64,000 bases of DNA from Rotaria socialis. Taxonomy: Eukaryota. Positions 251 through 35,681 of the stretch are shown piece after piece. The stretch is from NCBI GenBank assembly GCA_905331295.1, contig CAJNYD010000281.1, positions 1-64,000 on the forward strand, given 5' to 3'. Under the pieces are notes generated by a model, which saw only the letters and a list, made by a program, of their open reading frames with translations, was not told where the DNA came from and searched no databases. Position 1 is the first letter of the stretch, and every line of letters starts with the position of its first letter. Made by a program: the position numbers and the translations under genes.

Positions 251-531
251 TTCATATAAAATCTAGAATGGTAAGTGAATGTTGTTGTCTTTTTCTATTT
301 ATTTCTAGAATAAAAAAAAGCGCTTTTAAATGAATTTGTGTAATCAATTGGCCTAAATTTAAGTTTTAAAGATTTTTTTACAGTTTGATCTGAAGGTTTT
401 TCTTTAAAGAGAAGTACATAGAAGGAATTTATGAAAGTCAGATGATAGAAAAAAAAAGTTTTTTGATTCTCTGAATTTAGTGTTTAGTTTTGTGCTTTTC
501 CTAATAATTTAACGATTAATGTTTGTGTAGA

Positions 532-3500: not shown

Positions 3501-4425
3501 AAGTTTCAGGACATGTTAATACTTGTAAATGTAAGTTGGTACTACATTGTTCTAGTTGATTTTGTATATGAGTCAAATATTCTTGTACGAATTGTTGACA
3601 TAACTGAGGATCATGAGTTTTTGCAATTTTATAGAAATCATCCTTTGAATAAAAGAAAAGAAAAGAAAACAGAAACGAAACAAAACATGACACAACTTAT
3701 TCATAATCTAATCAAAGATATACACTTACTGGCCATTGTTGTTGTTCACAGCCAAGATCAAAATAAGAATGCCAAAGAGATTCATGTATATTCAAACAAT
3801 ATTGTAAATCTAATAGTTTCAATCGTGAATAAATAAATCTATGTTCTAATTTGGTCTTAAGTGGTTGATCGAGCTGTCGGCCAAGTGCTTGAATCAATAG
3901 TCTTGGTAATCGTTTCAAATAGGATGCTACTCGATACACTTTATCGGAGTTTGGTATTGTTGTTCGTATTATATTTTGTTTTTTCTTTACTTTTTTTGAA
4001 ATTGGTTGTGATATTGAAATTTGACTAAGTGATCGAACGGGTTCTCTTTTTCTTTTGTTGGAAATGTTCGACTCCTTGTTAACATGCTGCTTCAATGTCT
4101 AGCATAAATATATACGTCATGTAGGAGGTCATCATACAAATTAAAGTTAGTAAGGTCTTACTATGATAGTTTTAGGACGATTGTCTATTGAATCATTGTT
4201 ATTAACCATTGATTTCGTTTGATTTGTACGAGAATCAACAAATTTTTGTTTGATTTTCTTTTCAATGTTATGTAGTTTCATTCCTCGAGCACGACATTTC
4301 TTACGAAAACGTTGTACTTTTCGATTTCCATGACATTTTTTACGTCGTCTCTTGTTCTCTACGATATGATCTGATGAGTTATTTTCATTAATCGTCGTCA
4401 ACATTCGATCAGAGTCCGTATCCAT
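532..4425 (-). CDS. Athena-type reverse transcriptase with N-terminal basic/coiled-coil region, 8 exons, ~1137 aa, no endonuclease
   Basis: Exons 4425-4162, 4098-3730, 3642-2784, 2720-2164, 2090-1591, 1512-1165, 1108-636, 575-532 join in frame via GT-AG introns. Motifs: KRRRKKCHGNRK, ETDKGG, YYNPKTHK, LRPI, ADITNLYT, GGAMGSPFT, YGR|YIDD, YHKP, NG|YP. Confidence 0.9.
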
Positions 4426-4605
4426 GAGGATAGTTAATCCGTTTTTATCTATATCTAAAATATAGAAGATAATCTCAAATGAAAATTATAATAGAACAAA
4501 GATATAAGAAGAAGAAAACAAAAAAGTCTAATAAAATGATCCCATCGATCATCGAACAAAGTAACATTTCATTTTCAATAATATTAGATGAAAGATTCGC
4601 TATTG

Positions 4606-5929
4606 TTATAGAACATTTCCATTAAGTTGACTTAATTGAGCTTTGCATTTGTAGATATATTCGAGACGTGTATCAATATTAACTAAACGTTGTTCCATTA
4701 AATGTATCATCGTTGAAGTTAAACGTTGATCAATAGGAAGTAGTTTTTCCTTTTGCCATATTTCATTCATTTCCATATTGTATTGTTTTTGATAGTGATG
4801 CATTTGTCGTTCGGCTGTATCTCTTGCTAATATCATTATACTGACTTTAGCTTGTTCGACAACTTCGACATAGTGTTTGAATAATTTCGTTCGTATCGTT
4901 TCATCTTGAATACTATCAATGATTGAGGATTTTTCGGTGAGTTGATTTCTAATAGAATTCGAAGTAACATGTTCAGGAATCGATTGTTTCATTAAATTAA
5001 AATGATATTTCGTGATAGATTCTTCATATTTCAATTTACAGAGACGTTTGAAAATACGTATCTAAATTAAAATAAAAAAAAATGAATATCTATAATGAAA
5101 TATATTTATCTATGATGATGAGGAGGAGGATATGCTTACCTGGTATTCATTGGGATTCTCAATTAAATATTGACGTTTAAGTAGTCCATCAATGTAATGA
5201 TAGTGAACGAGTGCTATTTCACAATCATATTCGATACGTTGATACATGAACCCTTGTTGTACAAGATTTTGAATGGTTAATTCCATTGCCGATGTATAGT
5301 CTATGATATGAGTTGTTCGATATCGTAATTTATTTCTGTAGACTTCATATTGATCATTTAATTTCGTTCGACAATGATCAACAAATAGTTGACATTTTTC
5401 ATCTACACTCATGTTGACATTTACGATAGTGTTAATTCGAGAACGAATTGCACATGGCCAAATTTTCACAGAAATTTCCTTCGTTAATCTTGGCTGTTGA
5501 AGTTCACCAATGCCTGATTTTCTATATGTTGTCCAAAGAGTTTGTAGCTTTTCGAGTAATAAAATTCTATACATGAGAATAGCAACATGTCTTAATTCTT
5601 CCAAATGATTTTGACTGATTTTTGGTCGTATAGCATGAATCTTATGTTTAAATGTTTCATTTGAAGTAGACAAATACGTCGGAACTTGATTGATATCGAT
5701 TCCAATTAATTGTTTAAGCTTGAGTTCTGTATAAGAAATAATCTTTCTTGGTTTCGATGTTTTTTTCTTCGTTGGATGTTTCAATGAACAGGATAATTGA
5801 CTAAATCGTTGTGATAAATCAACTACATCGGATATCGACTAAAATAGAAAATGATAAGTTGATATATTTTTTTGTGATAAAAACAAAATAACTTCTTTCT
5901 ACTTGCGAATGTTGCATTGCTTCAGACAT
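4606..5929 (-). CDS. Terminon coiled-coil (CC) protein, 3 exons
   Basis: Exons 5929-5903, 5838-5140, 5061-4606 in frame; LSQRFSQLS, VPTYL and KIWP motifs and the NEYQ| intron shared with the gene at 31314-32765. Confidence 0.8.
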
Positions 5930-6061: not shown

Positions 6062-6083
6062 AGGGTGTGGGTGTGAGGGTGTG
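6062..6083 (+). repeat. Telomeric-type repeats (TGTGGG/TGAGGG) at an element junction
   Basis: AGGGTGTGGGTGTGAGGGTGTG directly abutting a pLTR; TGAGGGTGT also at ~5997. Confidence 0.8.
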
Positions 6084-6320
6084 TTGAATAACCACGATAA
6101 ATTGTTATTTTGTTTGATTTATTTATTTCAATTCTAAAAATTAGAATCATTATCAAGTGGCATAGATATTTATTCTGATCTTAAATAAATAAAATCATTA
6201 AAATAAAATATCCACCAGAAATTTCCAAATTAGTTTTGAAAATTTCATTACACTATGTTAGTGTGTTGAATAACCACGATAAATTGTTATTTTGTTTGAT
6301 TTATTTATTTCAATTCTATT
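6084..6320 (-). repeat. pLTR (one full and one partial copy, ~182-bp period), same family as 20.6-21.0 kb and 22.6-22.8 kb
   Basis: gtgtgttgaataaccacgataaattgttattttgtttgatttatttatttcaattcta at ~6079 and ~6261. Confidence 0.8.
6091..6161 (-). ncRNA. Variant hammerhead ribozyme (U3-A8 core, extended stem III)
   Basis: GCCAC-TTGATAA-T-GATTCTAA(TTT)TTAGAATT-GAAA-TAAAT...ATTTA-TC-GTGGT. Confidence 0.7.
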
Positions 6321-8184
6321 GATTTTCTGAAAGATACCTGGTCGAATTTTTTAAAGTTCTTTATGTGGTTTTCATAATCTCGATGAAAATCTCAAGAAAA
6401 GGTTAAGGCTTGGTTGAATTTTTATTCGCTTTTGTTGTTTATAGATTATGTTGTAGCGCGACCTCTTTCAGTATACATGTTGTGCTCAATCTTAATGGCT
6501 GATCTGTGATGAGTCAGAAATGGCGAAAAAGAAAAAGTAGAAAGTCTTATTTTATTGTTAGTAAATGAAATTCTTTCAATCTACGTTTTTTGTCGTTACA
6601 ATGTGAGGAAAATAGATGACTATGAAAGAGAAAATTTTTATGAATTGAACGAAATTTATTGGAATATTTTTTTATATACACGAAATAAATAATTTATATA
6701 TAGAGATCAATTAATGTAAAAATAAAGAATTTAGAAACGAAGCTTAATTTTGATCAATGATTCGAGCGATTTTAGAAAAGGAGTGATGATCTATTTGTTG
6801 TTTATTCAAATACTCAGTTAGAATTATTTTCAGATACTCGATGAAGCTCGATATATTATTCGAAGAAAATAAATAGAATTTAACATACCTGTTATTTATT
6901 GTAAAAGAAGTGGTCTTGGATGAAGATGGTAAGAGGAGAGACAGAAAAGTAAAGATATACTTTTCGATGTTTAGGAAATGATATATATTTGCTCGTGAAG
7001 GTCCGTCTTTTATAGTCTCGTCCGGAGAGTGAATTTAGAAAAATAGAAAATAATAGAAATTATTATTTTCGTTCGGTAGATGAACGAAATTGAGCATTTT
7101 ATTGGACGAAAAATGAATTTACTAGAGAAAAAAATCCGAAAAATTCAAGAGAGTGATTCAGAGAAAATAGGAAAAAAATAGATAATGGCTAGCGTGATAT
7201 TGATCGACTCATCAATTAAGATGAATGGTTAAGCAAATGAGATATCAGTGATTTTGACATGTTCAAACATTATCGAATTCCTTGTGTTTGTTCATAATAA
7301 TGGATACGATCTGATTAATTTCGGATATGTTAATGAATGCATTCTATAGTTCAATGCTTTTAAAATCAAGACAGCTATAAATTCAAAAGAAAGAACTTTA
7401 AGAATAAGTCACGAACTTAAATACCTTTTTATATTTTTATGTTTCATTTTATGGAATTTAATATATTTCATTTTTTAATAAATAAAGATCACCATTAAAA
7501 TAAATGACGAAAGAATAAGAAGAATAATTTGAACTTTCTCAACATTTTTCTTATAAAGAAATATTTTTTTTACAAGTACAGTTGGATGAAATATCTTTGA
7601 AAATAAGAGTAATTCTTCAACGTTTTCCAAAAAGAAATTATTTTCAAATAGAGAGGAACAAATATTTATTTTATTAATTTAAAATCCATCATTCAGATTA
7701 TAATTTTTCTAGAAGAACAGCGACTTTCAATTGAATTTTCCGTATGTTATATCCGTATAATTTATTGTTCAATTATTCAAACTTGAATCTTAAATATTTA
7801 TTCAGATATTCAAGAGAAAAACAACATAAGAATTATCTATTTTTTTCGGGAATAAATAATATTGAACTGATGCTAAGCAACATTCATATTAGGCTTGATT
7901 TTCTTTTATATTCATTTTGAAATCATATATTCATTGAAAGAACCATGTCAACAATGTAAAATAATTATTCATCAAAGAGTCATTTTAATAATGAAGAGTG
8001 AATATTTTTTTTTAATTATGTTTCTTATTTATCATGTTTGAAATTGATCAACAAAATTTCACGTCAATAAAGAACATGGAAAAACAAAGACGGTAAAGGT
8101 CAACGAAAAAATCAATAGATAAGATAGAAGACATGGATGAGTGCTATCTAAACGCTATCCTCTTGGTGACGACGATAATGACCG

Positions 8185-8320
8185 CGGACTAACATTTATA
8201 TAGATATATATACAGGAACGGATAAAAGACGAGAGGTCATCCTCCTTATATGACGGACTAACATATATATAGATATATATACAGGAACGGATAAAAGACG
8301 AGAGGTCATCCTTCTTATAT
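8185..8320. repeat. 69-bp tandem duplication (2 copies)
   Basis: cggactaacat...acaggaacggataaaagacgagaggtcatcct..ttatat at 8185 and 8254. Confidence 0.85.
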
Positions 8321-8799
8321 ATAAGTCTATATATTAAAGGTGATGTATAACAAGGAAACAAAATTATCATGTGAAGAAACGCGACAAGTCAAGATCTACC
8401 ATTCATACCAGACAAATATATTGTCCCAAGGAAAAACAAATTAACAAAAATAACGTAATTATAATGGTAACGTTCAACAATATACTCTACATAATTCAAG
8501 CAATATTAAATGACTCATTTTGACCAAACAGTCATGCATTTGTCGACTTGAATAACATTTATTTAGAAATGTAAAACAATTTAAAAAAATACTTTCAATA
8601 TGAAAACCTCATATAATCATATAAATTATTCATCACAAGAAAGAATTAACTAGTATATCAATGAAAAAATTACATTAATAACAAACCGAAATTCGAAAAT
8701 GATATAAATCGATTCATTCGAATCAATTACATCACTTCGAGTAAACAAGATAAATTCAATAAATTCATATTCACCATCAAAATTTGATTTAAAAAATAC

Positions 8800-11700
8800 T
8801 TAATCAAGAAGCTGAAACAGTACCTAAGGTGTTTTGACATACGAAAAACTAATACTTATCTATTTCAACTACAGTCCAGCTAAGAAGTATTAAAAATCGA
8901 AAATTATTTTAGATCACTTCTAGATATCAAATGGATCTCAACGGATCTAAATTCAGCATAAAAAATTGATCTAGGATGACCACCTTCGAAAATAAGAAAA
9001 CGTTTCTGAAAGGTTTTCAAATTTGAAAAACTAATTTTTTGCAAACTCACATGTAATGTAACAAAAAGTATTAAAAATCGCCAATATTTTTAGATCACTT
9101 CTAGATATCGGAATCAGCTCAACGGATCTAAATTCAGCATATAAAACTGGTATAGGATGATCTCCTTCAAAGGTATGAAGTGATACCTGAAGGTTTTTTA
9201 AATTCGAAAAACTGATTTTTCGGAAACTGATATGTGCTATACCAAAAAGTATTAAAAATCGTCAATATTTTTAGATTACTTCTAGATATCGAAATGATCT
9301 CAACGGATCTAAATTCAGCACATAAAACTGGTATAGGATGACCACCTTCAACAGTATAAAGTAGTTCCTGAAGGTATTTCAAATCCGAAAAACTGATTTT
9401 TGTATACCGACCTGCATTGGAATGAAAATTATTAAAAATTGCGAATCTTTTTCGATCGCTTCTAGATCTGGAAACGATCTCAACGGATCTAAAATCAGCA
9501 TAAAAAACTGGTATAGGATGATCACCTTCGAAAATATAGAAGAGTTTCTGAAGGTATTTTAAATTCAGAAAAGTGGGTTCCAGTAAATCTTGCTGTAGCA
9601 TGCCAACTAAATAATAAATTTGCAATTTAAATTAGGATCGCTTCTAGATACCGAGATGATCTCAATGGAACTAAATTCAGCATTAAAAAGTGATATAGGA
9701 TGACCACCTTCGAAAACAAGAAATAGTTCCTAAAGGTATTCCAAATCCGAAAAACTAATTTGCTGCATAGTCACATTGTTGCACCACAAAGTATTAAATA
9801 TTGCGAAAATTTTCTAGATTACTTCTAGATATGGAAATGATCTCAACGGATCTAAATTCATTATGTAAAACATGTATACAATGACCACCTTCGAAAATAA
9901 GAAATACTTCCTGAAGGGTTTTAAAATCCGAAAAACTAGATTTTTGTATACTCACATGTGTCGGACCAAAAAGTATTAAAAATGGCGAATGTTTCTAGAT
10001 CGCTTCTAGATATTGAAAAGATCTCAACGGATACTAACTCTCCATCAAAAATTGATACAAGATGATGACATTCAAGTATCAGAAATAGTCCCGGAAGGGA
10101 TTTTAAATCCGAAAAACTGATTTCTAGCAATTGCTGCTGTAGCATAACAACAAAATATTAAGTTAGGATTTCAAATTAGGATTGCTTCTACTTATAGAAA
10201 CGATCTCAATGGATTATAACTGAGTATAGAACGTTGATATTAAATATAGGGTCTTGATCAACTGAGAGGATTCTCATAGGGTTTTTGACAATATAAAGTG
10301 TTTGACAAGAACTACATTATACTAGTTAATATCATATTATTTCTCACACGAAAATGTGAACGGTAAGAGATATCAGAATGATCTCAACTGATCCTGATTC
10401 ACCATCAAAAACTGGTATACAATATATCAATTTCAGCATCTGAAAAGGTTTCCAACAGGTTTTCCATAGGAACAAAACTTGCTAAAATTTGCTTCAATAG
10501 AAAAAATGTCATTTTCAAATTCTAATTTCCAAAAGACAACGGTTCAAGATTTCGAAGAGATCTCAATTGTTTCTGATTTAGAATCAAAAATCGATATAAA
10601 ATACAGTGTTTCGATGATATGGAAAGGTTCTCAAAGAGGTTTCCTAAAACCTAAAATAGTTGCTATGAATTACATTATTCAGGAATATATCATATAATAT
10701 TGGGCACTAAAATATGAACGGTTTTAGATATCAAAATGCTCTCAACGGATCTTAATTCAGCATCCAAAACTTTTATAGGATATACTCTTCTACTGTAGTT
10801 AGAAGGTTTTCAAAGCGTTTTCAAAAATCTAAAATCATTTAAAAGGAGATTCCACAGCAAAAAGTCGGCTATTTATTTTCGGGCTCTAATACTTGAATGG
10901 TATGAGATATTAAAATGATCTCAACTGATTCTAACTCAGCATCGAAAATTGATATATAATATATACTTTCGAATATCCAAAGAGGGTCTCTTATGGTTTT
11001 TGGAAATCTTTAATTTTGATTTTTATTGCTGCATAACGAATTTAATGATTTTCAATATCTGGGTTCAAAAAATGAACGGTTCTAGATATCGTAATAATCT
11101 CAACGGATTAAGATTCAACATTTAAAACTCATGTAAGATATTGTATTTCGAGTCTATGAAAGGGTCTCTAGAGGGATTTTGAAAATCCAAAAAGATTCCT
11201 AAACTACACTCAATGAAAAATAAAATCACTTTCAAATTCTACATTCCAAATGAGAACGGTATGAGATATTAAAATTATCTCAACGAATCCTATTTCAACA
11301 TCAAAAACTGATCTATAATGATCACCTTCCAGATATCGGATCAATATTCTAAGATTTTTGAAAGTCTTAAATTATAAAAACAATACTTAATAACAAATTT
11401 TTATATTGAAACTTCTTGGTATAAGATGAGAACGATCTGACATATTGAAATGGTTTACATATATTCTAACTCAGCGTAAAAAGTTGATATAAGAAGAATT
11501 ACTTCAACTATCGGAAAAAGTTCTTAAAGGTTTTTTGAAAATCTAAAATATTCCTAAAATTCTTATATAAAGCAAAGACTATCAGTTTACAATTCTGAGT
11601 ATAAGTTGAGAACGGTACATGATATCAAAATGATTTCAACATATTCTGATTCACCGTTGAAAACTCATATTGGAAGAATAGATTCGAGATTTACCAAAGG

Positions 11701-13150
11701 TTGTCCAGAGGTTTTTGAAAATCTAAAATATTTGTCAAATATTGATTCATTAAAGAAAATGTTATTTTCGACATCTATATACAAAATGAGAACGATACAA
11801 GATATCGAAATGATTTTAACATATTCTAACTCAGCGTCAAAAACTCATATAGGAAGACTTGCTTCAACCACTAGAAAAGGTTTCCAAAGGATTTCTGAAA
11901 ATCTAAAATATTCTACAAATCTTCAATAAAAGCAAAGAATATCATTTTTAATATTCTCAGTTTATATTCTGAACGGTACATCATAACAAAATGATCTCAA
12001 AGGATTCTAACTCAGCATCTAAAACTGATATAGAAAGAATAGCTTTGAGTTTGACCAAAGGTTCTTTGAGGGTTTTTGAAAAACTAAAATATTCATAAAA
12101 TTCTCATTTAACACTAACAATATTATTTTCAAATTTTCCACATAAAATCTGAACGGTACATGATACTAAAATGATTTTAACACATTCTAACTCGTCATTG
12201 AAAACTCATATAGGAAGAACTGGTTCCAGTACAAGAAAAGGTTCTCAAAGGTTTTTGAAAAACTAAAATATTCCTAAATTCTCATTTAAAGCAAAAACGT
12301 CGATTTAATATTCTTAGTATAGGATGAGAACGGTATAACATATCGAAATGATCTCAACTAATCCTGATTCAGTACCTCAAATTGATCTAAAAAGAACTCT
12401 TTCGACTATCTGGAGAGGTTTTATAGGGGTTTTCGAAAATCTAAAATATTCCTCAAATATCGATTCATACTGGAAAATGTCCTTTTCAATATACACGTTG
12501 TGAAATCAGAACGATACAAGATTTCGAAATGATCTCAATGGATTCTGATCCAATGTCGAAAGGCGATAAATAATGCTCACTTTAAAGGTTCTGAAAGGGT
12601 TTTTAGTTGGTTTCTGAAAAACTAAAATTTTGCTCTATGTTGGTCTATGGAGAGAAATTTATGTTTCATGTTAGTGAGAATAAAGTTAGAACCATGTAAG
12701 ATATTGAAATAATTTAAGTGGCTCTACTTTCACCATCAAATTCTCGTATAAGATATACATTTTCCATGATCTAAACAGATTTCGGAGGGGTTTTCTCAAC
12801 TTAAAATTCTACTAGAGGTTACTTTTCAATGAGAATTTCTTTTTTCGATTTTTGAAGCTAAATAGAGAATAGTTCAAGATATTGGAATGATCTCAACGCT
12901 TAAAGGTTCAAAACTGAAAACTGTTATGAATAGATCATTTTCCAGGTTCTTAATATGCTTAAGAATGGTTTTTGAAAATCTGAAATTTTGATTGAAATGA
13001 ATATGACAAAAAATCAAAATGATTCATGTTATAGATTTTATCTCAATGGATTCTGATTCATCGTCGAAAATTTATATCGTGTGACCCGTTTTAAAGATCT
13101 AAAGATATTTCCTAAGAGTTTTTGAAAAACTAAAATTTTAACAAAAACAC
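8800..13150. repeat. Diverged tandem array of ~180-bp units (~24 copies)
   Basis: Motif atgatctcaacggatct(a/g)attcagcat..aaaactg.tata..a and ggttttt gaaaatctaaaat recur at ~8935, 9116, 9297, 9477, 9659, 9840, 10021, 10203, 10381 ... 12890. Confidence 0.9.
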
Positions 13151-14559
13151 TTATATGGAGAAAATCACGTTTTTATTTTCCATATATGTCATACTTAAAA
13201 CTTGAATTCAATTGAAGCTTCAAGTTTCATCGAATCTTAATCTCACTCAATGCGATTTTAGCCACGTTATATCTCAAGAAGCATTCATTCGATAGAATCA
13301 AAATTGTTCATGGATCTATAATCCCTTACGATCTACCTAATTAAGAAATATCAACTCGAAAGATTGAATTCTTGACCATCTATTGATCATCACGACAAAA
13401 GAAAACAATCACTTTTTCTCTTAATTCAGTCATGATACTTTAGGGAAAAGTCAATTCTTTTTAAAACCTCGACTTTAATGGATGATATTCCAGATTAGGA
13501 ACACTTGCGTTTTATATTCCTACATTCAGTTCCACTGAAACTATCACAAAGATGTCTGTAGCAACTACTTCTTAATGACAAAGCTCACACTTTGAGCCAG
13601 TCTTTTATATAAATTTCTATCCACAGGATCACCCCGAATGTTGGTACCGAGAAAGAACAAAACCCTCGTCTACACACGCACACACACAACACATCTCATA
13701 TGTGGGTGCCAAAAAGGAACGAAACTCTCGTCTATACCTACACATCTGTGATTCTTGATTGAACACGTATCGCGCCACTGATTTCGTATTTGCTTGAGGA
13801 ACTTGTCAGATTGTTGTCTCATGCAAAGAAGTATTCTTTTACTGAGACATTCGTGCAGAAGAATGCTTTTTACTAAAAAAGATGTGTCGACATGCATAGA
13901 AATGTTAAGTAGACGACCTGGTAGAGATCTGTTGAATGACTGGATCAGTTGAGATCTATATGCCTCGGGACTAATTCAACTTATTTTGATCCGATGGATT
14001 CCCATCGATCTGTTTTGAGAGTCTAAAATAAGTAAGGCCATCAATGATAGGTTCTCCGAGAGAACTTTTACGTTTTTAGGCTTTTCAATAATTAGCGTGA
14101 GTTATCGAAGATTCTGAAATTCGAATTAATAGAGCTCTTCTGGTCATAAGAAGAACAGAAAGAGAAATCTTTGAAAATATTGCTCGAATAGTTGCTTTCG
14201 TCATCATTTGAAGGTATGTTTGTATGTGAAGTTGTGATTTCACAGTAGAGAAAATTGAAAAATGTTTATCATCAATAAAGTGACGAATGAAAATGGCTTT
14301 TTCTTTTATGTGCATGTGGTTAGACGATTTCTGCCCTCCAGTATAGCTTCTAGAGCTCATTAGGTCTACTTTTATCTATAGAAGTATTTAAAATTCTTAT
14401 GAACGGTAGTGAAAGCATCGTTATTTATTCATGTATATTTTGTATCTCGAGTCTCAATTATTTTATTACACATGAAAATTACATGAATTAACAAAAACAA
14501 AGAAGTAATTTGAAATAGAACTAATAGCATGTTAGTACCTACAATAAGCATCAGATTTT

Positions 14560-16696
14560 AACACAAGCAAGTTCTTTTTTGGACAACATTTTATATCATA
14601 TACTTTACACAGACAAAATTTTATAGCAGTTTGACCATTACAATGGTATGTCTGTGCCACTGAGTATTTATTCCTACTGTAACATATTCTTTACATGCTT
14701 GTGTAAATGTAATTGTCGGTAGATTTATTGAGTTAACAATACGGATATTAGCCAGATCATAGTTTCTTTAATCTGATAGCTCTTCAGTACCGAGTAATGT
14801 TGATAATACGTCTCTCAATTTAAACAACTTTTACGTCCTAATAACATTCGAGAATAATTGAATGGATAAAAATTTAGATATTAAAATTGGCGATATTATT
14901 TTTGGGACAGTCGACGTGATCGAGTTAAAGACTAATAAAATCTTTCGATTGATATTGCTCTTGGTATGTCATGGCATTTTTATGCAGTTTTTGACGTTTA
15001 GCCACTGATTTAGAATAGTTATTTTCTTCTTGTTCTCGAAATGCTTCATATCTATGATTATGAATATCTGTATCATTGTTCTCCATAAAAAAATCTGTAA
15101 AATAAATGAAAAATCAAATGGCATACATTTTTCAGTTTATAGTATACGGTACTCTACGACAAACCTTGAGTAGTAGTATTATCATTTAAGCCTGGATAAT
15201 TACTCGGAGAATTTATAGTTGCTGTTTGATGAGTTTCAGCAAGAGTATTATGAGTAGATGCGAAGTTATTGGCAACAGAAGCTAGTATTGATGTTTGAGG
15301 TTGTAGTGTCAGATGAAATGTTTGATTACGTTCATCGAAAGTATTTAACTGAGTGTTGCTGTTTTGAAGATCATTTAAATCATCATCTATTCCAGTATTA
15401 GATATATCGAAATGTGGTACTTAAAAAAATTGAATCTAAGATAAAACTTACACCCGTTGAGTTTGCGAATAAAATTATCCGGAAGGTTTTCTTCATCTTC
15501 TATACCAGATTGATTCATAACTTTCCATAATTCAAAATTTGATCTGAGTCCTTCCCTAAAAATAACTTCATAAGGTGTTTTCTTTGTGATTTTTGCAATA
15601 CTGGTATTAATTTCATAAACAATTGGGCCTAAACCTTGACAAAAATATTTTATGAAAAAAACGAAATTTAATGAAGATTAATCTATATTTACCTTTTGAC
15701 CAGTTATCTGTATGATTATGCTGCATCCATGTCCCTACAGCCATTTCCAAAGTATGATTATCATACTCAATCAAGATTCGCGTATGTGAATGAGGCGATC
15801 TACCATTTATAATTACTAAATCTGTCCAAGTCTTTCTCATTTCCTACAAGAGAAAAACGAATAATTTATTTCATTTAAAAACCTTTTTAAGAACATACTT
15901 TTATTAGTTGAGCAACAAACTCCTTTCCATTATCGCTTTGAAGTATGCAAGGAGGACCAAAGGTATAAAACTGATTTAATAGTTTTTCCGCCACGGACTC
16001 CGCTTCTTTAGATTCGAGTGGATATGCCCATAAGAACTTTGAAAAATGATCTTTAACACGTAAAATCCATTTAAATTTGCCATCTGGATTGTTACTCATA
16101 TCAATGACGCTCATCTGAATACGTGTTAAATAACCAATTGAAACGATTGATTTAACTGTTTATCAAAAGAGGAATCAAAATCAACATTAACAGTAGCGAG
16201 TATCACTTACTCACAGGAGATTTAGTGAAGTTTTGTCGATTGCAGCACAAATCACACAACTTAATGAAAATGGTAACGACATCGTATGGAATCCAAGAAT
16301 ATTTTGCTTTAACCTAAAATTAACATAATTTTCCTAGTAGAAAAATAAGATCACAAAATTACATACTTCTTTCCATGTTTTATCTCTACCATGATGGCCC
16401 ACAAGCGTATGACATTCATATAATTTTGTATAAAATTCTTCATATGTTACGACTGGACGACTATCTGTGCCGGTACTAAATACAATATTTTCATTACTGT
16501 TTTCAACAAGCGTGAAATGCTTCTGGACCCAATGCTTGAACTGTGGATCACCCCAACCATCACGCAACACCAAAATAATGTCTTTGTACATTTCTTTTTT
16601 AATGACATATTTAGCACGAAATTTTTGATGACGATTTTGAATGTGGAAATCGAGGTTTTTATAAAATATCTCCATGTGCAATCTCGAATCATACAA
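14560..16696 (-). pseudogene. Intron-containing DDE integrase-like transposase (Ginger2/KRBA2-SCAND3-like), degenerate
   Basis: HHCC zinc finger (ECHTLVGHHGRDKT...CDLC), core (KWILRVKDHFSKFLWAYPL, FGPPCILQSDNGKEF, IINGRSPHSH), Cys-rich C-terminus near 14570-14645. First catalytic Asp position reads QMSVID; the 3' exons look disrupted. Confidence 0.7.
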
Positions 16697-17899
16697 TCAA
16701 CGAATTTACTTTTATGAACAGAGATTTCATTAAAGACATTCTCCTGTTGTAGACTTATTCGCTTAATTCCTCTTTTCGTTTATCATTTCTCTTAAACATT
16801 ATAGATGTCGATATGATGGTGTTTCTTTCACATTCATTTTCATAAGAAGTCACAGAAATATCGATACATTTATTGTTGGTAGGAAAGTTTTGAATTCTCC
16901 TGTAGGTGAAATTAAAATTTCAAGCTCCCTAGAGGAGATCAAAATTGTATATTCCCCTAGGGGAATCTAAAATGGTTATCTAAACATTCATCGAAAATAA
17001 AAGTGTCAAAGAAAAATAATAGAAACTGTTAAAGCTTTCTGAATGTGATCCTGTTAAAAAAATAAAAGGATCAGGCTGCTAAGTCGGAATCAAATTTTTT
17101 CAATGAAAATGAAAAAAGACACGAAAGACTAGAAAACCTACTTCGAAATATTACTTCATCGTGTTTAAATGATGTTTCTTATTCGGAAGTATTGATTTGT
17201 CTATTCCTTCAATTATATAAATAATCCACAATAACATATGCAATAATTTGATTATTCATCCTCACTCTGATCCCACAGAAAGTTTCGTCATTTCTACTTC
17301 CGATGAGAGTTGAATGTACTGCTATAGTTTTAAGTTCACGCAAGGAGAGATTAAAATTTCAATCTCCTCTATAGGGGAATTTTAAATTCTCTTACCATGT
17401 CTATGAGCATACTTTTTCTTATAACACAACAAAACGACAAGAAAGCAAAACTGCGTCACGCAACATAAAGAAAAAAAAACAGACACGAAAAACATTTATT
17501 CACTGTCGTCTCTCAACGTCGTGTCTATGTATGATCACGCTTGATTGGTCAAGGATGATACTTAGTGGGGAAAAACAGGTAGCTTCATTCAATATAAATA
17601 CTGAAGGTAACTTAATAGTAAAGTAAATCGAGACGAATTAAATATAGTTCAGTACTTCTTCTGATCGTGAATACGTCCAATTATCCACATATGGACAAAA
17701 TCAGGTAGAACAGAGTATATATCACTCTCTTTTGACTTCGATTTAATACTAGGATATTCCTTTTGTATAAAATTTTTGCGATAGATATATGGAAAAATAT
17801 TGGTGCTTTCAACTGACATTCAATTAAAAGTAATCAATTGACTAATGAAGAATTCTGTTCATTCGAACATTTGGACTAGCATAGGGGATGAGTGTAACA

Positions 17900-18340
17900 T
17901 GCTAAGATCCAGATTTCGTCCTTGCTTAAGGGACTGATCGGTTGGCTTTAACTCTATGGTAATCATCTTGAATGATCACATAAAAGGATCATAGATAAAT
18001 TACCATAACCTATACAGACTTAAGTAACGATTCTCAGAGAGATATCGTATTGCTCATGGTCGATAGGTATCCATATAAAGGAATAAATTTATTAAACACA
18101 AGATTATAGATCGAAAGCATCGTATAACGCGTTTCGACCTTGCTGAGGGATCCTCATCTAGCATGTTTACAATATATTATTACATATAAATTCAGAACTC
18201 TCCAATAGATAGTAGAAGTTAAGAACGAAATCGTACTATGATCTCGTATCCATAGGTAAATTTATCAAATGCATAATAATAGATGAAAGCATCACACGAG
18301 GCGTTTCGATCTTACTTAAGGGACTCATCAGGTATGTTCT
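17900..18340 (-). repeat. Decayed pLTR array with three degenerate hammerheads
   Basis: Hammerhead remnants at ~17905-17947, ~18121-18168 and ~18293-18337; the last reads CTGATGA-GTCCCTTAAGTAAGATC-GAAA-CGCC-TC. Confidence 0.7.
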
Positions 18341-20076
18341 TAATCCTTTTTTATATCGTAGTTAGGAGTGTCAAATTTTAGTTTTAAAAAATTATTAAAT
18401 CGAGAAATAAATTTTCAAAAATTAAATTGAAATTAAATTGAAATTCTGAAAATTTAACTTGATAGAATTTAATTTAAAGTTAAATTAACTTTTCCCGCAG
18501 TTACATCTGCGACATTGATGGTAATTGTCTGGTTACAAGTGATTTCTTTGTAAATTTTAGTAGATCTCATTGTAAGAGTGGTTTTGTCTATTTTAAGTTA
18601 GATTCAAATTTGAATGAATGTAAATATGAAACCGAGATAAACCTTTTTTGATAATAATTCAGAATTTAGTGCTAGTTTATGTGTAAAACAGATAAATCCA
18701 ATCATATCAGCTCGACTGTTCCTGAAAAATACATATGGTGATGTTTATATTTCATTGTAGAGGCATGGCCACTACCGGGGAAGATATTGAAGAAAAAAGT
18801 TGCATTGAAAACTATATATTTCTCTATTATGATTTTTCAAACATCATATTATTAGTGTTTGTTTTTCTCCTGTTAAGCATGTGCGCCTCGTGTGCTTATG
18901 CATTTCCTTGTAACTTTCGCCATCGCTATCAGATTGTTCCTTTTTGGAGTCGGTTACATTTTAGTTTGTTTTAATTCGAGTGAATCGACGTAATAAAAAT
19001 GTGTTTCATCAAAATAATCATTGAAAATATTCAATGATCTCATTTTTACAGTGTTTTGATTCACAAATTCTTTACAATTCTATTTTCTAGGAGAATTCCG
19101 AAATTGAAAATAAATTATTAGGAAGATAGCTTGTGTTCAGAGTTTTCAGAAATGAAAAAAATATTTACTCAGTCCTTTTTTTCCAAAAAAATTTGAATAT
19201 TTCTGTTGAAAAACAAGCTGTTTCTGGATAAAAGAAAAATTTTTATTTTGCTTATTCTCGATATGAGTTTTCTCAAACGCGGATCCAAAATTTCTTTGTA
19301 ATGGCTAGCGCTATGTACCAATATCTTTTTTTGTTGGAAAGAGAGCACCAAGGCACAGGGCGTCACGACGCCCTTTTTTTGGAAATATCCTTTTCTTTAG
19401 ACGATATAAACCAAATAATAAAATTTGATTATCATTTTTTTGATGAATTTTTCATAGTGAATAGGTAACACAGTAACGACTCAGCAACTAAATTGCCTAC
19501 GACACTCACAATTTGAACCCCACCTTCATGCCCTCATACCTCAATCCATGCCAGCTGGTACTTTCGTTCTGGTTCTTATACGTTCATATTTGTCGAAAAA
19601 GACCAGCTTGTCTGCCTCTATCGGTAGTCATTATCGATCAACACTGAAGAATATGTTCGTTTTCTGTGTATTTTTCTTTGAAATCCGTCTATTTAAACTT
19701 TTTATTTTCCGATGAATTTGGTCTAAAGGTCACTCCTTTACATATCAGTAGTTTACCTTCAACTAAACATTTTTCAATCCTTTTATGTTATAATCACGAC
19801 ACAACATCTGATAATTTATATTGATGTTAATAAATTCACTTGCTATAGAAGGATTTCTATTAAATGTTGAGACTTCAACTATGAGTTGATTGTCTGCGTT
19901 TCCTAGAAGATCGTTACGAATCTTCGATATTTGTTGATCTGTTTATGAAAATAAAACGAACAATGCGTTAGATATGATATCAGTTGCTTGGAAACACGTA
20001 CTCAGAAAAGCTACATGATTATTGTCTCATATCCACTTATTTTTCAGATTATATTTTCTTCTGCAAATTAGTCAAA

Positions 20077-20484
20077 ATGGGTCCCATTGAAGCGAAACTT
20101 ATTGATTGTGATCCTAAGCAAATTCGGTCAAAATTAAATTTAGATCTAATCGATGATGATCCAGAAATTGAAATCCAACATGGAAGTAACTGGTCAGTTA
20201 TTCGATTTAAGGGTGAGGTTAAATCAAATGATTTACATTTGTCGCTCAAAATAACGAAAGGAAAAACTCGCGGTGCTCATTTGACATGTGAAGCAATTGA
20301 ATTTTATTTGGCAAAACATCACATTAGCTTCATGCGTAGTTGGAAAGAAATTGAGCAGTGGTATGACGAGTGTTGTCGTAGCTTGAACTTAAAAAGGGAC
20401 AATAAATTTATTGATAAAGTGGAAATATGGCACCATCAGATGAAAAACTGTGTTAGTATTCATCCACAAGATACTGACCTTTGA
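20077..20484 (+). CDS. Hypothetical protein (~135 aa from ATG), unknown function
   Basis: Open frame with normal composition (MGPIEAKLIDCD...); ttttcag acceptor at ~20047. Confidence 0.5.
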   Translation: MGPIEAKLIDCDPKQIRSKLNLDLIDDDPEIEIQHGSNWSVIRFKGEVKSNDLHLSLKITKGKTRGAHLTCEAIEFYLAKHHISFMRSWKEIEQWYDECCRSLNLKRDNKFIDKVEIWHHQMKNCVSIHPQDTDL

Positions 20485-20568
20485 CCAAGAGCGTAAACAA
20501 AATTGACTCTCGTAATAAAAACATCTTTAAAAAAGTGTTATTTTTTTTTCTTATATGCAAGTGGTTTA

Positions 20569-20591
20569 TGAGGTGAAGGTGCGAGGGTGTG
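20569..20591 (+). repeat. Degenerate telomeric repeats at a pLTR junction
   Basis: TGAGGTGAAGGTGCGAGGGTGTG immediately before the pLTR. Confidence 0.65.
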
Positions 20592-21020
20592 TTCAATAAC
20601 CACAATAAATTTTCAAAAATTTTTCAATATTTATTTCGATTCTATCTATTTTAGAATCATTATCAAGTGTCAATAGATATTTATTCTGATCTTAAATAAA
20701 TAAAATAACAAAATTAAATACTATTCATAAATTTCCAAATTATTTTTGAAAATTTCTATACTCTAATCGAGTGTGTTGAATAACCACAATAAATTGTTAT
20801 TTTTCAAAATTTTTTGAATATTTATTTCAATTCTATATATAGCAGAATCATTATCAAGTGGCATATAGATATTTATCCAATTGATTACGAAAGTCAAAGA
20901 TAAATTTCTAATAAAAATTTCCAATTTAATATTGAATATTTCAATACTCTATAAGAGTGTGAATAATAACCACAAGAAATTGTTATTTTTCAAAATTTTC
21001 TCAATTTTTCCTTCGATTAA
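20592..21020 (-). repeat. pLTR array (2 full and 1 partial, ~185-bp period) with U3-A8 variant hammerheads at ~20599-20671 and ~20783-20862
   Basis: Repeated ataaccacaataaatt...ttatttc(g/a)attcta...agaatcattatcaagtg. Confidence 0.8.
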
Positions 21021-21105
21021 TTAACACTCAAGTCGCATTGAACTAACGCTCGAGTCGCTTGGCTCGGCCTTCGGCCTCGCTTAATCTTCAATCTTCCATC
21101 GTCAA

Positions 21106-21124
21106 GAGGGTGTGTGAGGGTGTG
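21106..21124 (+). repeat. Telomeric-type repeats at a truncation junction
   Basis: GAGGGTGTGTGAGGGTGTG between a truncated segment and the next pLTR. Confidence 0.8.
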
Positions 21125-21131
21125 AACAGCT

Positions 21132-21178
21132 ACCATGATCTATAGATTTCATTGGAACTACCCAAATCATCAGATGGC
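21132..21178 (-). ncRNA. Type I hammerhead ribozyme (pLTR family 2, copy 1)
   Basis: GCCAT-CTGATGA-TTTGG(GTAGTT)CCAAT-GAAA-TCTATAGA-TC-ATGGT; palindromic stem III. Confidence 0.8.
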
Positions 21179-21334
21179 AATTAATCTAAATAATTTTTAT
21201 TCAATTCAAATTAAATTAAACAAAATAAAAATCAAAAGATTAGTTCATATATCACTGACAAATATATAGAATTTTCAAAGAAAACTCAATATACATTTGT
21301 TGATAATTTCCTTTAAACAGCAGTGTGAACAGCT

Positions 21335-21381
21335 ACCATGATCTATAGATTTCATTGGAACTACCCAAATCATCAGATGGC
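21335..21381 (-). ncRNA. Type I hammerhead ribozyme (pLTR family 2, copy 2)
   Basis: Identical to 21132-21178; 203-bp period. Confidence 0.8.
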
Positions 21382-21441
21382 AATTAATCTAAATAATTTT
21401 TATTCAATTCAAATTAAATTAAATAAAATAAAGAGAAGCAT

Positions 21442-21486
21442 CCCACGACCGGTTTCGTCCTTGCTCAAGGGACTCATCAGGTGGTT
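21442..21486 (-). ncRNA. Type I hammerhead ribozyme (canonical, minimal stem III)
   Basis: CCAC-CTGATGA-GTCC(CTTGAGCAA)GGAC-GAAA-CCGG-TC-GTGG. Confidence 0.92.
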
Positions 21487-21595
21487 TACGACAACTAACT
21501 CGATTATAAAAATCAAATTAAATTATCTATCATACAAACGTTCAAGCAAAATTTTCAAAACGAAGTATAATAACTCAAAAAACTTGTGAACAGCT

Positions 21596-21640
21596 ACCAT
21601 AATCTAGATTTCATTGGAACTACCCATTTCATCAGATGGC
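21596..21640 (-). ncRNA. Type I hammerhead ribozyme (pLTR family 2, diverged copy 3)
   Basis: GCCAT-CTGATGA-AATGG(GTAGTT)CCAAT-GAAA-TCTAGA-TT-ATGGT. Confidence 0.7.
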
Positions 21641-21909
21641 TTATGAAAACTAAATGATTTTCAAATAAGAGTGTCAATTAGAAAACTGATCTATCTATCC
21701 TTGAACGAAAAGACAAAAGCCAATCTGCTACTCTCAACTCTTTCATTTTGTTAAAAAATTGAATCTTTCTCGAAATCAAAAAATTTCAATAAAAATTTAT
21801 TAAAAAACTAAATAAAGCATGACGAGACTCTATCTCTCTTAAAGGATGACAGTGGCTGGCTAGTAAGAAGAAAAGACCTAATCATTCCTCGAACAAGAAC
21901 CCTTAAGAA

Positions 21910-22051
21910 CTAACATTGAACTAAGTCTCGTCTCACTTTGAACTAAGTCTCGAGTGGCATTGAACTAACGCTAAAGTCGAATTGAACTAAGTCTCGAGTG
22001 GCTTGGCTCGGCCTTCGGCCTCGCTTAATCTTCAATCTTCCATCGTCAAGA
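21910..22051. repeat. Short ttgaactaa(g/c) tandem repeats ending in a GGCC-TTC-GGCC hairpin segment; second copy at ~21030-21107
   Basis: gcttggctcggccttcggcctcgcttaatcttcaatcttccatcgtcaaga present twice. Confidence 0.75.
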
Positions 22052-22570
22052 TGTTGATCCATCAGATGCTAGTGCATCCTTCATCCCCACACAGCTTGTG
22101 TTCGTGTCTATAATAAGAAATTTAAGGCAAAAAAAGACAGAAAGACAGACAGTCAAACAGTCAAACTGTCAAACTGTAGTAGAATACATGTTCAACCTCA
22201 ACAAATATCTACGTACCTACCCCAGCTACCTACACGAACTAACTAACTAACTAACTAACAAACTAACAAACTAACAACACAAATACACATCACAACACAT
22301 ATATCACAATGTGGGTGCTCGGAAAGACGTTTTCATTGAGAAAAATCTTCAAAATTTCTCTGAAACTTTGACTAAATTGACGAGTTCATCTTGAATAAGT
22401 TCTTCTTTCTTTTAATTTGAAGAAAATTTTGTTGAAAATCTAGTCGATGGAGATGAAAATGCTTGAAATACTGATCGATTATCTCGTCTATCTTACAACA
22501 ATACATCACATATCTCTCAATGTGGGTGCTTTGAATCAACAAAAGACAGTTTTTTCTTTAAAAATTTTCT

Positions 22571-22592
22571 TGAGGGTGAGGGTGAGGGTGAG
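22571..22592 (+). repeat. Telomeric repeats (TGAGGG)3.7 at the 3' end of the giant terminon
   Basis: TGAGGGTGAGGGTGAGGGTGAG directly followed by the pLTR. Confidence 0.88.
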
Positions 22593-22599
22593 ATAAATA

Positions 22600-22675
22600 A
22601 CCACGATAAAATTTTTAAAGATGTTATTTTGAATTTTATTTCGATTCTATTTAAAGGAATCGATTATCAAGTGGC
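22600..22675 (-). ncRNA. Variant hammerhead ribozyme (U3-A8 core) in the terminal pLTR; partial second pLTR copy at ~22775-22830
   Basis: GCCAC-TTGATAA-TC-GATTC(CTTTAAATA)GAATC-GAAA-TAAAATT...AATTTTA-TC-GTGGT. Confidence 0.68.
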
Positions 22676-22968
22676 ATAGATAATTTGTATGATTTTAAAT
22701 AAATAAGATCAAAACTAAATTATCCAAATGAAATAGAAATTTTAAACAATTTCTTTTCAAAATACTCTAATAAAGAGTGAGATAAATAACCACGATAAAA
22801 TTATTTTGATTTTTAAAGATGTTTCAATTTTTTATTTTTTATTTTTGAGAAAATGAATTTTTTTACATTCTTTTTTAACAGAAAACAGATAAGATAGATT
22901 TAGGTTTTGAAAGAAAACGAAGACGATGTGTAGTTCCGTGATATTGATAAGTGTTTGCTGATGAATAG

Positions 22969-24056
22969 TTATGGTTCATTTTTTGAGGCCATTTTCAGAA
23001 TTTGTTCAGCGCGTCGTTCGATGTTCTGTATTCTTGTTTGAATAATTTGTTTGATATTGGTTTCGTTTGTTTTTGTTGTGTTTGTTGCAAATTCTATGTT
23101 TTCGGTTATATGATCAGTTTGAATATCGTACGAAATGATATTATATTCAGATTTGATTTTAATGGTGTCCGTTTGATAGGATGGTTTTGTTTGTAGAGTT
23201 GATTGTGGTTTTTTTTCGAACGTAAAGTTTGATTGTAACCATGGTTTAAGGGTGAATGTAATCTTTCGTTTATTGTAACGGCTATGTTTGCGCCAAATCT
23301 GTTGAGCAAAACATTTCTAAAATGATAATTTTCAGGATTTATTATCGATGAAATATTTTGTATTCTTATACTTACTTGTTGTTCGTTTGGGTTCAAACTA
23401 TAAAATTGTTTGACCAGTTCAACTTCTCTTATATCGAATGGTAAAATCGACTTTTTGTTGTCGAAAAATTGTTTCGATTTCTTGAGATCATGGTCGATGA
23501 GTGTACTTATAGCAATATCCATCGTATCAACTGAGAAGTTGATAATATATTCCTTTGCTATTCCATAATAATGATTTTTTTCTTCTAAGTGCTTGTTCAA
23601 TCTATATTCTGCTTCTCGTATTTTATTATTGATCAGTTGTTGTCGATGTTGTAAATTTCGTTGACTTCGAGGATAATCCCAATTAATCGAATTATGTTTT
23701 GTTATATTTTTCGGCATCTCTGATAACCATTGTATAGCAGGTGTTACCATTTGAATAAGATGTTGCCAATAATCTTGTTCAATCTGTAATTGTGATAAAT
23801 GAAATTTCAAAATTGTATGCTCTCGTATAAAATTAAATAAAGCACGATTTGATAGCCAATGTCGAATTTTTTGATGATCACTTGGTATAGCATTCGATAA
23901 TTGACGAATGAATACATGTGCCGGTAATTTCCTATAATTTGGTAGATTTTTCGATGATGATACTTTCCATTTGTCTACAGTTAATTGATTCTTCTTTCTA
24001 ACAAGTCCATTATTTGTTTTAGCAGGTAAATTATGTTCGATCATTTTTAGTTCCAT
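22969..24056 (-). CDS. Terminon coiled-coil protein, 2 exons
   Basis: Exons 24056-23376 and 23316-22969; FYSLNPNEQQ| intron and C-terminal IQTRIQNIERR parallel the gene at 25760-27113. Confidence 0.7.
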
Positions 24057-24368
24057 TGATTTTGATTCTTGTTTATAATTTATTTCAAATTGAAAATAAT
24101 ATAAACGATAAGATTGTATTTTATATCGAAATGATTTATTTGTATATCTAAAATGGAGAATACATTGACTTTCTTTTTATTTTTATTTATAATGAAAATG
24201 AATTTAATTCTAATTTTTCTCTAATATTAACTTTCTACGTTTTTTTTTCTTTACAATACAATGCAAGATGTAAGAATGAATATAAGATAAACTACAACGA
24301 TTAACATTCTAAATAATAGTTTCAATTGTTTTTAAGACAATTACAATCATAAGAATTTTTGAAATGAA

Positions 24369-24982
24369 TCAAAATGCATTACGATAATTTTGATATGTTC
24401 TTTTATACAACTTTTCAAGTGTTTTTGTTCGATTTGTTTGTGGAATATAACGTCGTGGTCGATTTGTCATACGATCATGTACAAACACTTTGTCGAATGA
24501 TCTATTTTTGAATGCTTCGAATAGTTGCAGACCATGTTCACCGCTATGTACACATACTTCAGTAATATAATTCCAAAATGCCTGATGATCTCGTAGATAT
24601 TGAGAAATGAGTGTTGCTTCAAATGCTTTTGCTTTATCATAATTGATGGAATGAAAATCTTCACCAAGTAACCATAAAAGATTGGCTGATAATGATAATT
24701 TATACGGCCATTGATTTCTTCGTTCGGTGTTACATCTTTGACATTGACACTTATCATCGTCAATACTAGAATAAATAATAAAAAAAGTTGAAGAAGAAGA
24801 AGAAGAAGAAGAAGAAGAAGAAGAAGAAGGTGAATTAATTCAGTTAGTACAATCATTTTATTATACCTATATTTTAATTTTTGAAATGGATATCCAATTT
24901 CATTTCGTCGTTTTGAGAGCCCATTCGACGAGTCTTCTTTAATAAAACATGTATAATGTTTCACAAGAATAAGTTTAACCAT
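24369..24982 (-). CDS. Hypothetical ~170-aa protein with CxCxxC motif, 2 exons (not in the ORF track)
   Basis: Exons 24982-24867 and 24765-24369 in frame: MVKLILVKHYTC...KYS|IDDDKCQCQRCNTERRNQWPY...NYRNAF*; the intron contains a (CTT)n tract. Confidence 0.65.
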
Positions 24983-25759
24983 TTCAATAATTTCGAAATT
25001 GAAGTTGATAGAATGATCTATAGAATTGTTTGAATTTGTTACAGAATAATATCTAAAATAGAACATATCTTCATTTTTCATAATGAATACGTATACGTTT
25101 GTAGAATAAATTATGATTTAAGTAAAAGATTAATTTATAAAGTAAAAGTAAATGAAGGAAAAAAAAGTGATAGTAAATTATAGAATTAAAATAATAAAAA
25201 CATATTGAAATAGATGAATCTAAAATTGTATTTAATTCAAATACACAAAAAAAATTCATTGATTAAAAACAAATCCATGTATGATTTGAACATTCATTGC
25301 TTGAAATAGAAGAAGAAGTTGAAGAATAGAAATTCATACATTCAATTGACATAAGATATATTTGTATATGATCTATAGAAATTTGAAAGAAAAAAACAAA
25401 ACAACCCATGTTTGAAAATATTCAGAAAAAATAGTTTATAATTACTTGTATCATTTTTCAAAGAAATGTACGATGATAGTTCCATCTATCAAATTGTCAT
25501 TGTAAAGATACCAAAATAAGAAGATGTTCCATCAAAGAAATGATACTATGATCTAGAATGAACTAACAAATATCCTAATGTAGTCGTTAAGACGTAAATA
25601 ATAAATCAAGGCACAAATATATAGAAAAAGTGTCACACAAAATGAAAAATTAGTTTCAATAACAAATGGAAAACAAAAAAGAAGAAAAATTCAAAAATTC
25701 AAATGTCTATGATGTTGATGGTTCATTATATCTTCTATCCATTTTTGTTTTATTTTTCA

Positions 25760-27113: not shown

Positions 27114-27348
27114 GATTATGTAGAAGATGCCTTTTTTTATCTATAATAATCTAAAACAACATAGAAGAGAAATAAGCATTAGATAAAAAAAAAGACATTG
27201 AATAATTCAATGAAATCCTAAATAGAACAATAATTGAAAAAAAGAAAAATTTAATTGTTATTGTTATTGTTAATATTTTTTGTTTTTCTTTTCATTGATT
27301 TTAAATTTTCTTTGACATTCATCAATACATTTTGTTCAATGATCATTA

Positions 27349-31120: not shown

Positions 31121-31313
31121 AATGGTTTTGATAGTTTGTTTATCAAAAATAAAGATTGACGTTCATCTAGAATGGATCTAAAATGAAAACATAACACGTA
31201 CGTATGCCATCTACGAAATAAATCGAATGAAAAGTTACTACAATCTAGTTTAGAAATATTCAAATAAACATGTATTTTCTAAGAGAAGAAAAAAACGAAA
31301 TATTCTATTGAAT

Positions 31314-35464: not shown

Positions 35465-35681
35465 TCAAGGAAATTGTATTGATTCACTTGAACTATTTTC
35501 CATTTTAGTGGGATATTTTGATCGTTTTGTGAATATCATAAAAATAAGATAAATCGTTAGAAGCAATATCAAAAAAGCCATACCAAAACTCAAACCATAA
35601 AGAGTAGTTCTTGATGAATATGAATCATGTTGATTTTCCATGATGTTTAATGGTGATGTTGATGGTGATGTTGATGGTGAT

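Follow-up and report, generated by a model that had tools for sequence, protein, structure and literature searches.

We analysed a 64,000-nt stretch of Rotaria socialis DNA (contig CAJNYD010000281.1 of assembly GCA_905331295.1, positions 1 to 64,000; hereafter the window) and found four full copies of a type I hammerhead motif in which the consensus C3-G8 pair is replaced by U3-A8. Judged by sequence and pairing, the motif is a real hammerhead-type fold, and this fold is probably under selection. Host group and architecture make it likely that the copies are 3ʹ modules of Athena/Terminon elements, and each motif ends a unit of 182-189 nt on the same strand as the reverse transcriptase (RT) open reading frames (ORFs). 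The account that we hold to be on balance probable is that of a hammerhead module of telomere-attaching Penelope-like elements (PLEs), which would cleave slowly or with the help of a protein, and whose uncut or re-ligated form would expose C(A/T)CAC for priming at the telomere.

An earlier reading made from the letters alone (the sequence-only reading) had placed four copies on the minus strand, each of the form CAC-UUGAUAA-U(C)...UH-GUGG. All four were located, and are named below by their first coordinate.

6091..6161, minus strand: U3-A8 type I hammerhead, terminal copy; U3 at 6156, predicted cut after C17 at 6096 (AUC)
20599..20671, minus strand: U3-A8 hammerhead, terminal copy with an A.G mismatch in stem I; U3 at 20666, predicted cut after U17 at 20604 (AUU)
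20783..20862, minus strand: U3-A8 hammerhead, tandem copy inside the array, with CACAC and then a small hairpin behind it and no telomere repeats; U3 at 20857, predicted cut at 20788 (AUU)
22600..22675, minus strand: U3-A8 hammerhead with a UC insert and a 7-bp A-U stem III, at the likely 3ʹ end of a long ORF chain; U3 at 22670, predicted cut at 22605 (AUC)

Read on the minus strand, the motif arranges three helices about its core, with stem I open, and consists of stem I, UUGAUAA, an inserted U, stem II, GAAA, stem III, AUC or AUU, and GUGGU. The insert ahead of stem II is a single U in three copies and UC in the 22600 copy. The 5ʹ strand of stem I is GCCAC in three copies and GACAC in the 20599 copy, which is probably decaying, given its mismatch. 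A supposed fifth full copy at 20962-21038 was rejected, as its 5ʹ part is an unrelated 22-nt repeat without A8/A9 or stem II.

The sequence pattern matched four times in the window and not once in 100 whole-window shuffles. A pairing descriptor, with thresholds chosen after inspection of the four copies, also matched four times, against none in 40 shuffles (500-nt blocks). As the sequence-only reading had proposed, a covariance model was built from the copies: trained on three of them, it recovered the held-out 22600 copy with 53.5 bits (E 2.6e-7). The same model gave 11 matches in 144,548 bases, including two 3ʹ-half copies, at 45.1 and 43.2 bits, and another five that scored weakly (20-25 bits). 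The expectation that CUGANGA searches would miss the motif was also correct, since both CUGANGA patterns and Rfam failed on the U3-A8 copies. A relaxed scan yielded nine hammerheads, all on the minus strand, of which four were the U3-A8 copies and five were canonical minimal hammerheads with a palindromic helix III. Rfam, searched on the window with E up to 1, matched none of the four U3-A8 copies, and its single match was the canonical hammerhead at 21441-21486, under the gathering score. This miss reflects the reach of the models, because four of the five canonical motifs were missed too. Screens with CUGANGA and Rfam undercount rotifer retroelement ends.

In the numbering of the hammerhead core, C3-G8 is a tertiary Watson-Crick pair. 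The core (U4 G5 A6 N7 / A9 / G12 A13 A14 / A15.1-U16.1 / H17) was present in all four copies together with a Watson-Crick 3-8 pair, which is U3-A8 in each of them instead of the consensus C3-G8. Because this pair is common to all copies by descent, it counts as one ancestral event, not four. All 13 core positions were invariant, compared with 31 of 65 ungapped spacer columns, in units that are 67-81% identical (rough p 7e-5, kinship ignored).

Stem pairing was counted across the four copies from hand-registered tables. Pairs were found in 19 of 20 cells of stem I (the exception being the A.G mismatch of the 20599 copy), in 20/20 cells of the first five pairs of stem II, and in 24/24 cells of the first six pairs of stem III, which has 5-7 consecutive pairs plus A15.1-U16.1 in every copy. 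Stem I did not vary apart from the mismatch and showed no covariation (n=4). Stem II changed on one side only: 10.1-11.1 is G-U in two copies and G-C in two, and one A-U became G-U. In stem III, a single two-sided change from U-A to A-U was found in the 22600 copy, together with a longer stem. Loop II varied in length and sequence across all four copies, and no conserved contact between loops I and II was visible. The sequence-only reading had stated that stems II and III keep pairing while the loops differ. The pairing is as it described, but this is mainly sequence conservation and not covariation, and selection shows better in the conservation. Applied to the four units, RNAalifold found stem I, stem II and two of the spacer hairpins, and both sides had changed in 1 of 26 pairs; it failed to recover stem III or the third hairpin, and the MAFFT alignment was partly out of structural register. 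Given these register faults, spacer pairs were registered by hand.

Seven UH-GUGGUUA sites delimit units of 182, 184, 186 and 189 nt, with 1.3-2.3 units per array and a G+C content of 18-21%. The arrays are made up as follows.

6096..6277, minus strand: 182-nt unit, predicted cut to predicted cut; spacer 6157-6277 with stem I and three hairpins, z -5.8
6261..6318, minus strand: upstream 3ʹ-half hammerhead copy, 58 nt identical to the terminal copy
6062..6084, minus strand: reverse-complement telomere-like tract of the ACACCC/TCACCC type, joined at CACAC 17 nt past the predicted cut
20604..20973, minus strand: tandem pair of units (184 and 186 nt) with 79% identity; both spacers structured, z -2.7 and -2.3
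20957..21014, minus strand: degenerate 3ʹ-half copy with a broken stem III
20569..20592, minus strand: degenerate telomere-like tract ending the array
22605..22793, minus strand: 189-nt unit, spacer z -4.9; a degenerate 3ʹ-half copy lies ahead at ~22777-22825
22571..22591, minus strand: (TCACCC)n repeats with CTCAC at the junction, 17 nt past the predicted cut

Telomere-like repeats lie directly 3ʹ of the three terminal copies, that is, of three of the four full copies, and the unit with the CTCAC end is the one joined to (TCACCC)n. At four internal junctions, C(A/T)CAC is followed by a small hairpin, without telomere repeats. Because these junctions run into a hairpin rather than repeats, the template would supply only a 5-6 nt telomere match. 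C(A/T)CAC ends 17 nt past the predicted cut in each of the four copies, and likewise in two C3-G8 copies nearby; in the canonical family at 174, the distance between tract and cut is 19 nt.

The ~120-nt spacer folded better than its shuffles in all four units (z-scores as listed above), a level of -2 being reached by 3 of 60 background windows. In three of the four units its fold consists of three hairpins closed by stem I, and the fourth keeps the hairpins with stem I broken. Each hairpin shows two-sided changes by hand registration, too few for testing. The minus strand was favoured in only three of the four units. Because a neighbouring canonical unit is structured as well (z -4.8), spacer structure is a property of these pseudo-long terminal repeats (pLTRs) and not of U3-A8. 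The conserved three-hairpin fold predicted for the 120-nt spacer is new here, and the structured spacer together with the fixed 17-nt distance from cut to priming site are the most useful additions of this analysis.

Stem III had been described in the sequence-only reading as stable, and as something that could allow monomeric cleavage. The stability is not supported by the predictions. The 27-35 nt between GAAA and UH contain a stem of 5-7 bp without a G-C pair in any copy, closed by loops of 18-25 nt, and the isolated hairpin as drawn was calculated at +1.8, +1.8, +2.2 and +0.3 kcal/mol for the 6091, 20599, 20783 and 22600 copies. The predicted probability of stem III, in the same order, was 0.05, 0.97, 0.10 and 0.67 in 108-nt constructs and 0.03, 0.32, 0.03 and 0.65 in circles. 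In the minimum-energy folds of the 6091 and 20783 copies the catalytic core was paired with the 3ʹ strand of stem III, and in that of the 22600 copy G12 and A13 were captured. Exchange to C3-G8 in silico left the competing fold in place, so U3-A8 is not its cause. As a folding contrast, an unrelated, well-formed type I hammerhead (L005:1194-1254, plus strand, contig Ga0315277_10472762), whose core is U3-A8 and whose stem III includes G-C pairing, was predicted to adopt the hammerhead fold, with an ensemble frequency of 0.39. This hammerhead, one of 23 loci that the pattern scans gave outside the window, begins 3 nt beyond the stop codon of a gene for a phage capsid (PF25209), and it is missed by Rfam.

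Monomer folding is sterically possible for the U3-A8 copies, unlike for their minimal neighbours, and to this extent the claim of monomeric cleavage stands. Its efficiency is doubtful, with a stem III that is all A-U and predicted to be weak. We therefore regard it as unlikely that the copies are efficient monomeric self-cleaving ribozymes that form stem III inside a single copy, like the hammerheads of fungal telomeric PLEs. Such ribozymes would agree with the stem III pairs kept in every copy and their one compensatory change, with loops that permit intramolecular closure, with the high stem III probabilities of two short constructs (0.97 and 0.67), and with the long-helix-III hammerhead of Serpula, whose monomer cleaves at a rate of 0.16 per min with 1 mM Mg2+ (PMC4209133). 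They would agree less well with the values of 0.05 and 0.10 in two other copies, with the broken stem I of the copy that reaches 0.97, and with a G10.1 that pairs with U in two of the four copies. For two copies, stem III could also serve for dimerisation: its predicted self-duplex (-13.2 and -9.9 kcal/mol) is as strong as the neighbours' palindromes (-7.5 to -9.8 kcal/mol). Efficient cutting, moreover, would strip the priming tract.

In the account that we favour, the unit would fold as a hammerhead plus a three-hairpin spacer, and the weak A-U stem III and the competing folds would keep cleavage slow. Judging from the geometry, cutting would part the element body from the priming tract, and reverse transcription would begin where the telomere joins, 17 nt past the predicted cut. 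Because sequence from either side of the predicted cut is present in the genomic copies, the template would have been an uncut, re-ligated or circular RNA. Cut linear RNA would be unsuitable as a template, because the priming tract would be lost, or would stand at the 5ʹ end with nothing to copy. Occasional cleavage may trim read-through transcripts of a head-to-tail chain into units. A slow or protein-gated ribozyme fits an uncut, re-ligated or circular template. Metazoan PLE hammerheads were reported to be weakly active in vitro, and circular templates were proposed for them (PMC4209133). The hammerhead of an Anolis PLE was reported to cleave only with its protein, and its main template for insertion in vitro was uncut RNA, with internal initiation at an AC-rich stem-loop (PMC11167929). 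A review still called the role of PLE/Terminon hammerheads a mystery (PMC7761336).

Several observations weigh against this account. Covariation over stems I-III totals one two-sided change (n=4), and only four full copies are available, all from one window. The strict-fold probabilities of canonical neighbours were low too (0.001 and 0.004); because the energy models omit tertiary contacts and score these neighbours low as well, "slow" is a soft description of the cleavage. The 22600 copy, with a stem III probability of 0.65-0.67, may cut well alone. A pattern scan of metagenomes gave 21 loci, none of them of the U3-A8 rotifer family, that of GTDB gave 2 loci, neither with both stems, and viral contigs gave 0 by pattern and 0 confirmed by RT. 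Searches of PDB with the RT yielded nothing useful.

It is conceivable, though improbable, that the ~185-nt unit acts as a retrozyme aimed at telomeres. Two cuts by the U3-A8 hammerhead, followed by ligation, would then produce a small circular RNA made of the hammerhead and the three-hairpin domain, on which the Athena RT would prime at the telomere overhang 17 nt past the ligation junction and copy more than one round. Such repeated copying of the circle would account for the overlap of 58 identical nt at 6261-6318. The array at 6060-6320 comprises 1.3 units with this overlap, and the overlap in the canonical family is 101 nt, also identical; identical overlaps fit more-than-unit copying of a circular or tandem template, without being proof of it. 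Metazoan non-LTR (long terminal repeat) retrozymes likewise form tandem units of 170-400 nt with one type I hammerhead each and are related to PLE pLTRs (PMC7229834; bioRxiv 10.64898/2026.07.22.740005), and the two U3-A8 arrays other than that of the 22600 copy have no long ORF directly upstream among the ORFs of the window. Retrozymes differ in their canonical cores, loop-loop contacts and demonstrated circular RNAs (same sources), whereas the rotifer units have U3-A8 and telomere-repeat ends and are known from DNA alone. If the units were retrozymes of this kind, they would amount to a small template resembling telomerase RNA and made from a non-canonical ribozyme.

We give a similarly small probability to a non-cutting fold that is kept as a binding or priming platform for the Athena RT, with U3-A8 reflecting relaxed catalysis under A+T mutation pressure. 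The low G+C content of the units would suit such a platform, as would the two core changes, both of which are transitions towards A/U. The predicted cut site is spanned by the genomic copies, structure covers the whole unit and not the hammerhead alone, and in the Anolis element cleavage was dispensable for insertion in vitro (PMC11167929). What speaks for catalysis is that the 3-8 pair was retained through a double change and that every catalytic-core position, including the cleavable AUC/AUU triplet, is intact in 4/4 copies. The sequence-only reading had further argued that a U3-A8 swap can preserve cleavage, and natural U3-A8 variants, which occur in several hammerheads, are indeed cited as active in vitro (PMC3088659).

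That the match is no more than chance pairing in A+T-rich repeats, or the remains of a canonical hammerhead, is very improbable and largely refuted: the sequence is of low complexity and the isolated motif has folding z-scores of just -0.4 to -1.9, but the shuffles gave no match, only 1 of 23 pattern-only matches elsewhere has stems II and III, and the placement relative to the telomere junction is exact.

The non-canonical core described in the sequence-only reading is not new, as each of the three oddities (U3-A8, the extra base and a long helix III) is already published for PLE hammerheads. Schistosoma PLE hammerheads have U3-A8 and an unpaired base before stem II, with ~1,300 genome matches, and a base between 9 and 10.1 was listed in 2014 as a conserved trait of PLE hammerheads (PMC4209133). 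The supplement of that paper contains UUGAUAAA and UUGAAAAA rows in Schistosoma, and its three rotifer rows all have CUGAUGA and a tiny helix III. The Schistosoma motifs also share the long helix II, the short helix I and the location in PLE repeats with the copies found here. They differ in that they are obligate dimers without helix III (PMC4209133), while the rotifer copies have an A-U helix III of 5-7 bp, a long loop and a telomere-pairing tail. A long helix III is known from fungal and protist telomeric PLE hammerheads, which are similar in belonging to telomere-associated, endonuclease-deficient PLEs and in showing no evident contact between loops I and II (PMC4209133). Monomer cleavage was shown for Serpula, in contrast to the rotifer copies, which are known from sequence and combine U3-A8 with a stem III lacking G-C pairs.

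The closest known system is the 3ʹ module of Athena/Terminon elements, in which RT elements with several co-oriented ORFs form head-to-tail chains and end in a type I hammerhead, with (ACACCC)n or (TCACCC)n behind it (PMC6431247, PMC8557442). These hammerheads were described as minimal, without helix III or loop-loop contacts (PMC7761336), in contrast to the UUGAUAA and long helix III of the U3-A8 copies. Minimal dimer-type PLE hammerheads have helix III absent or reduced to a short palindrome, which is the state of the neighbours and not of the U3-A8 copies. The literature searched, which excluded Arkhipova et al. 2017, did not show U3-A8 together with a long helix III in any bdelloid Terminon; the 2017 paper is reported to have used relaxed descriptors allowing core mismatches and longer loops (PMC8557442) and may already show the variant. 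We concluded that the U3-A8 copies are a real, well-formed variant of a known module. Because U3-A8 and the extra base were already published, knowledge of hammerhead chemistry is unchanged. The family is a compact test case, in that all catalytic positions were kept through a double core change in a motif that could in principle fold alone, next to canonical dimer-type neighbours with the same 17-nt distance from cut to priming site.

The retroelement context of the copies comprises the following features.

23106..46086, minus strand: co-oriented, intron-split ORF chain of the Terminon type
27429-29545, minus strand: RT with intact motifs, in the ORF chain
36958-39369 and 42069-44264, minus strand: RT-like ORFs with degenerate motifs, 803 and 731 amino acids from stop to stop
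34262-34927 and 41214-41921, minus strand: two related ORFs, one with a GIY-YIG-like motif (read by eye)
120..5838, minus strand: a second RT element of the Athena type, whose terminal hammerhead is canonical and minimal, with C3 at 174 and the same GCCAC/GUGGU stem I
21130..21640, minus strand: canonical C3-G8 minimal hammerheads with a palindromic helix III, C3 at 21173, 21376, 21480 and 21635

With few exceptions, the long ORFs of 23106-46086 and 616-5838 lie on the minus strand, and introns split them. The chain at 23106-46086 carries the motifs DKSG, DITNLY, GGAMGS and YIDD, and comprises an RT of the PLE type to which no GIY-YIG is fused, together with accessory ORFs; its remaining ORFs were Pfam-negative. 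The two RT-like ORFs at 36958-39369 and 42069-44264 are still open even though YIDD has become YQNQ and YTDE. Because the relaxed scan found no hammerhead between 22675 and 46086, this long chain probably has its 3ʹ end at the 22600 copy. The RT exon at 28376-29545 had 336 homologues; those named among the 120 listed came from the bdelloids Adineta, Rotaria and Didymodactylos, the best with 65-68% identity, and RVT_1 was matched in two of three RT homologues tested.

The terminal canonical hammerhead of 21130-21640 joins telomere repeats at the same 17-nt spacing as the U3-A8 copies. The hammerhead at 21441-21486 (minus strand) belongs to one canonical family and lies inside the spacer between two hammerheads of another (21340-21601). 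Similar to it are three decayed canonical hammerhead-like motifs at 17890-18340 (minus strand), ~171 and 218 nt apart. The segments 21020-21112 and 21960-22060 (minus strand), which are 5ʹ parts of canonical-hammerhead and U3-A8 segments, have in common a G+C-richer stretch of ~85 nt with a 22-nt tandem repeat, which suggests a common 5ʹ module or template switching.

Elsewhere in the window, a tandem duplication with a ~610-bp unit (84-89% identity) lies at 46146-47364, just upstream of the ORF chain, and a diverged ~180-bp satellite array of about 22 copies occupies 8800-13150. A broken intron-containing coding sequence at ~15000-16700 (minus strand), read by eye, is presumably integrase-like. 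Pieces of a hAT transposase, with zf-BED and Dimer_Tnp_hAT, were found at 61668-63808 (minus strand).

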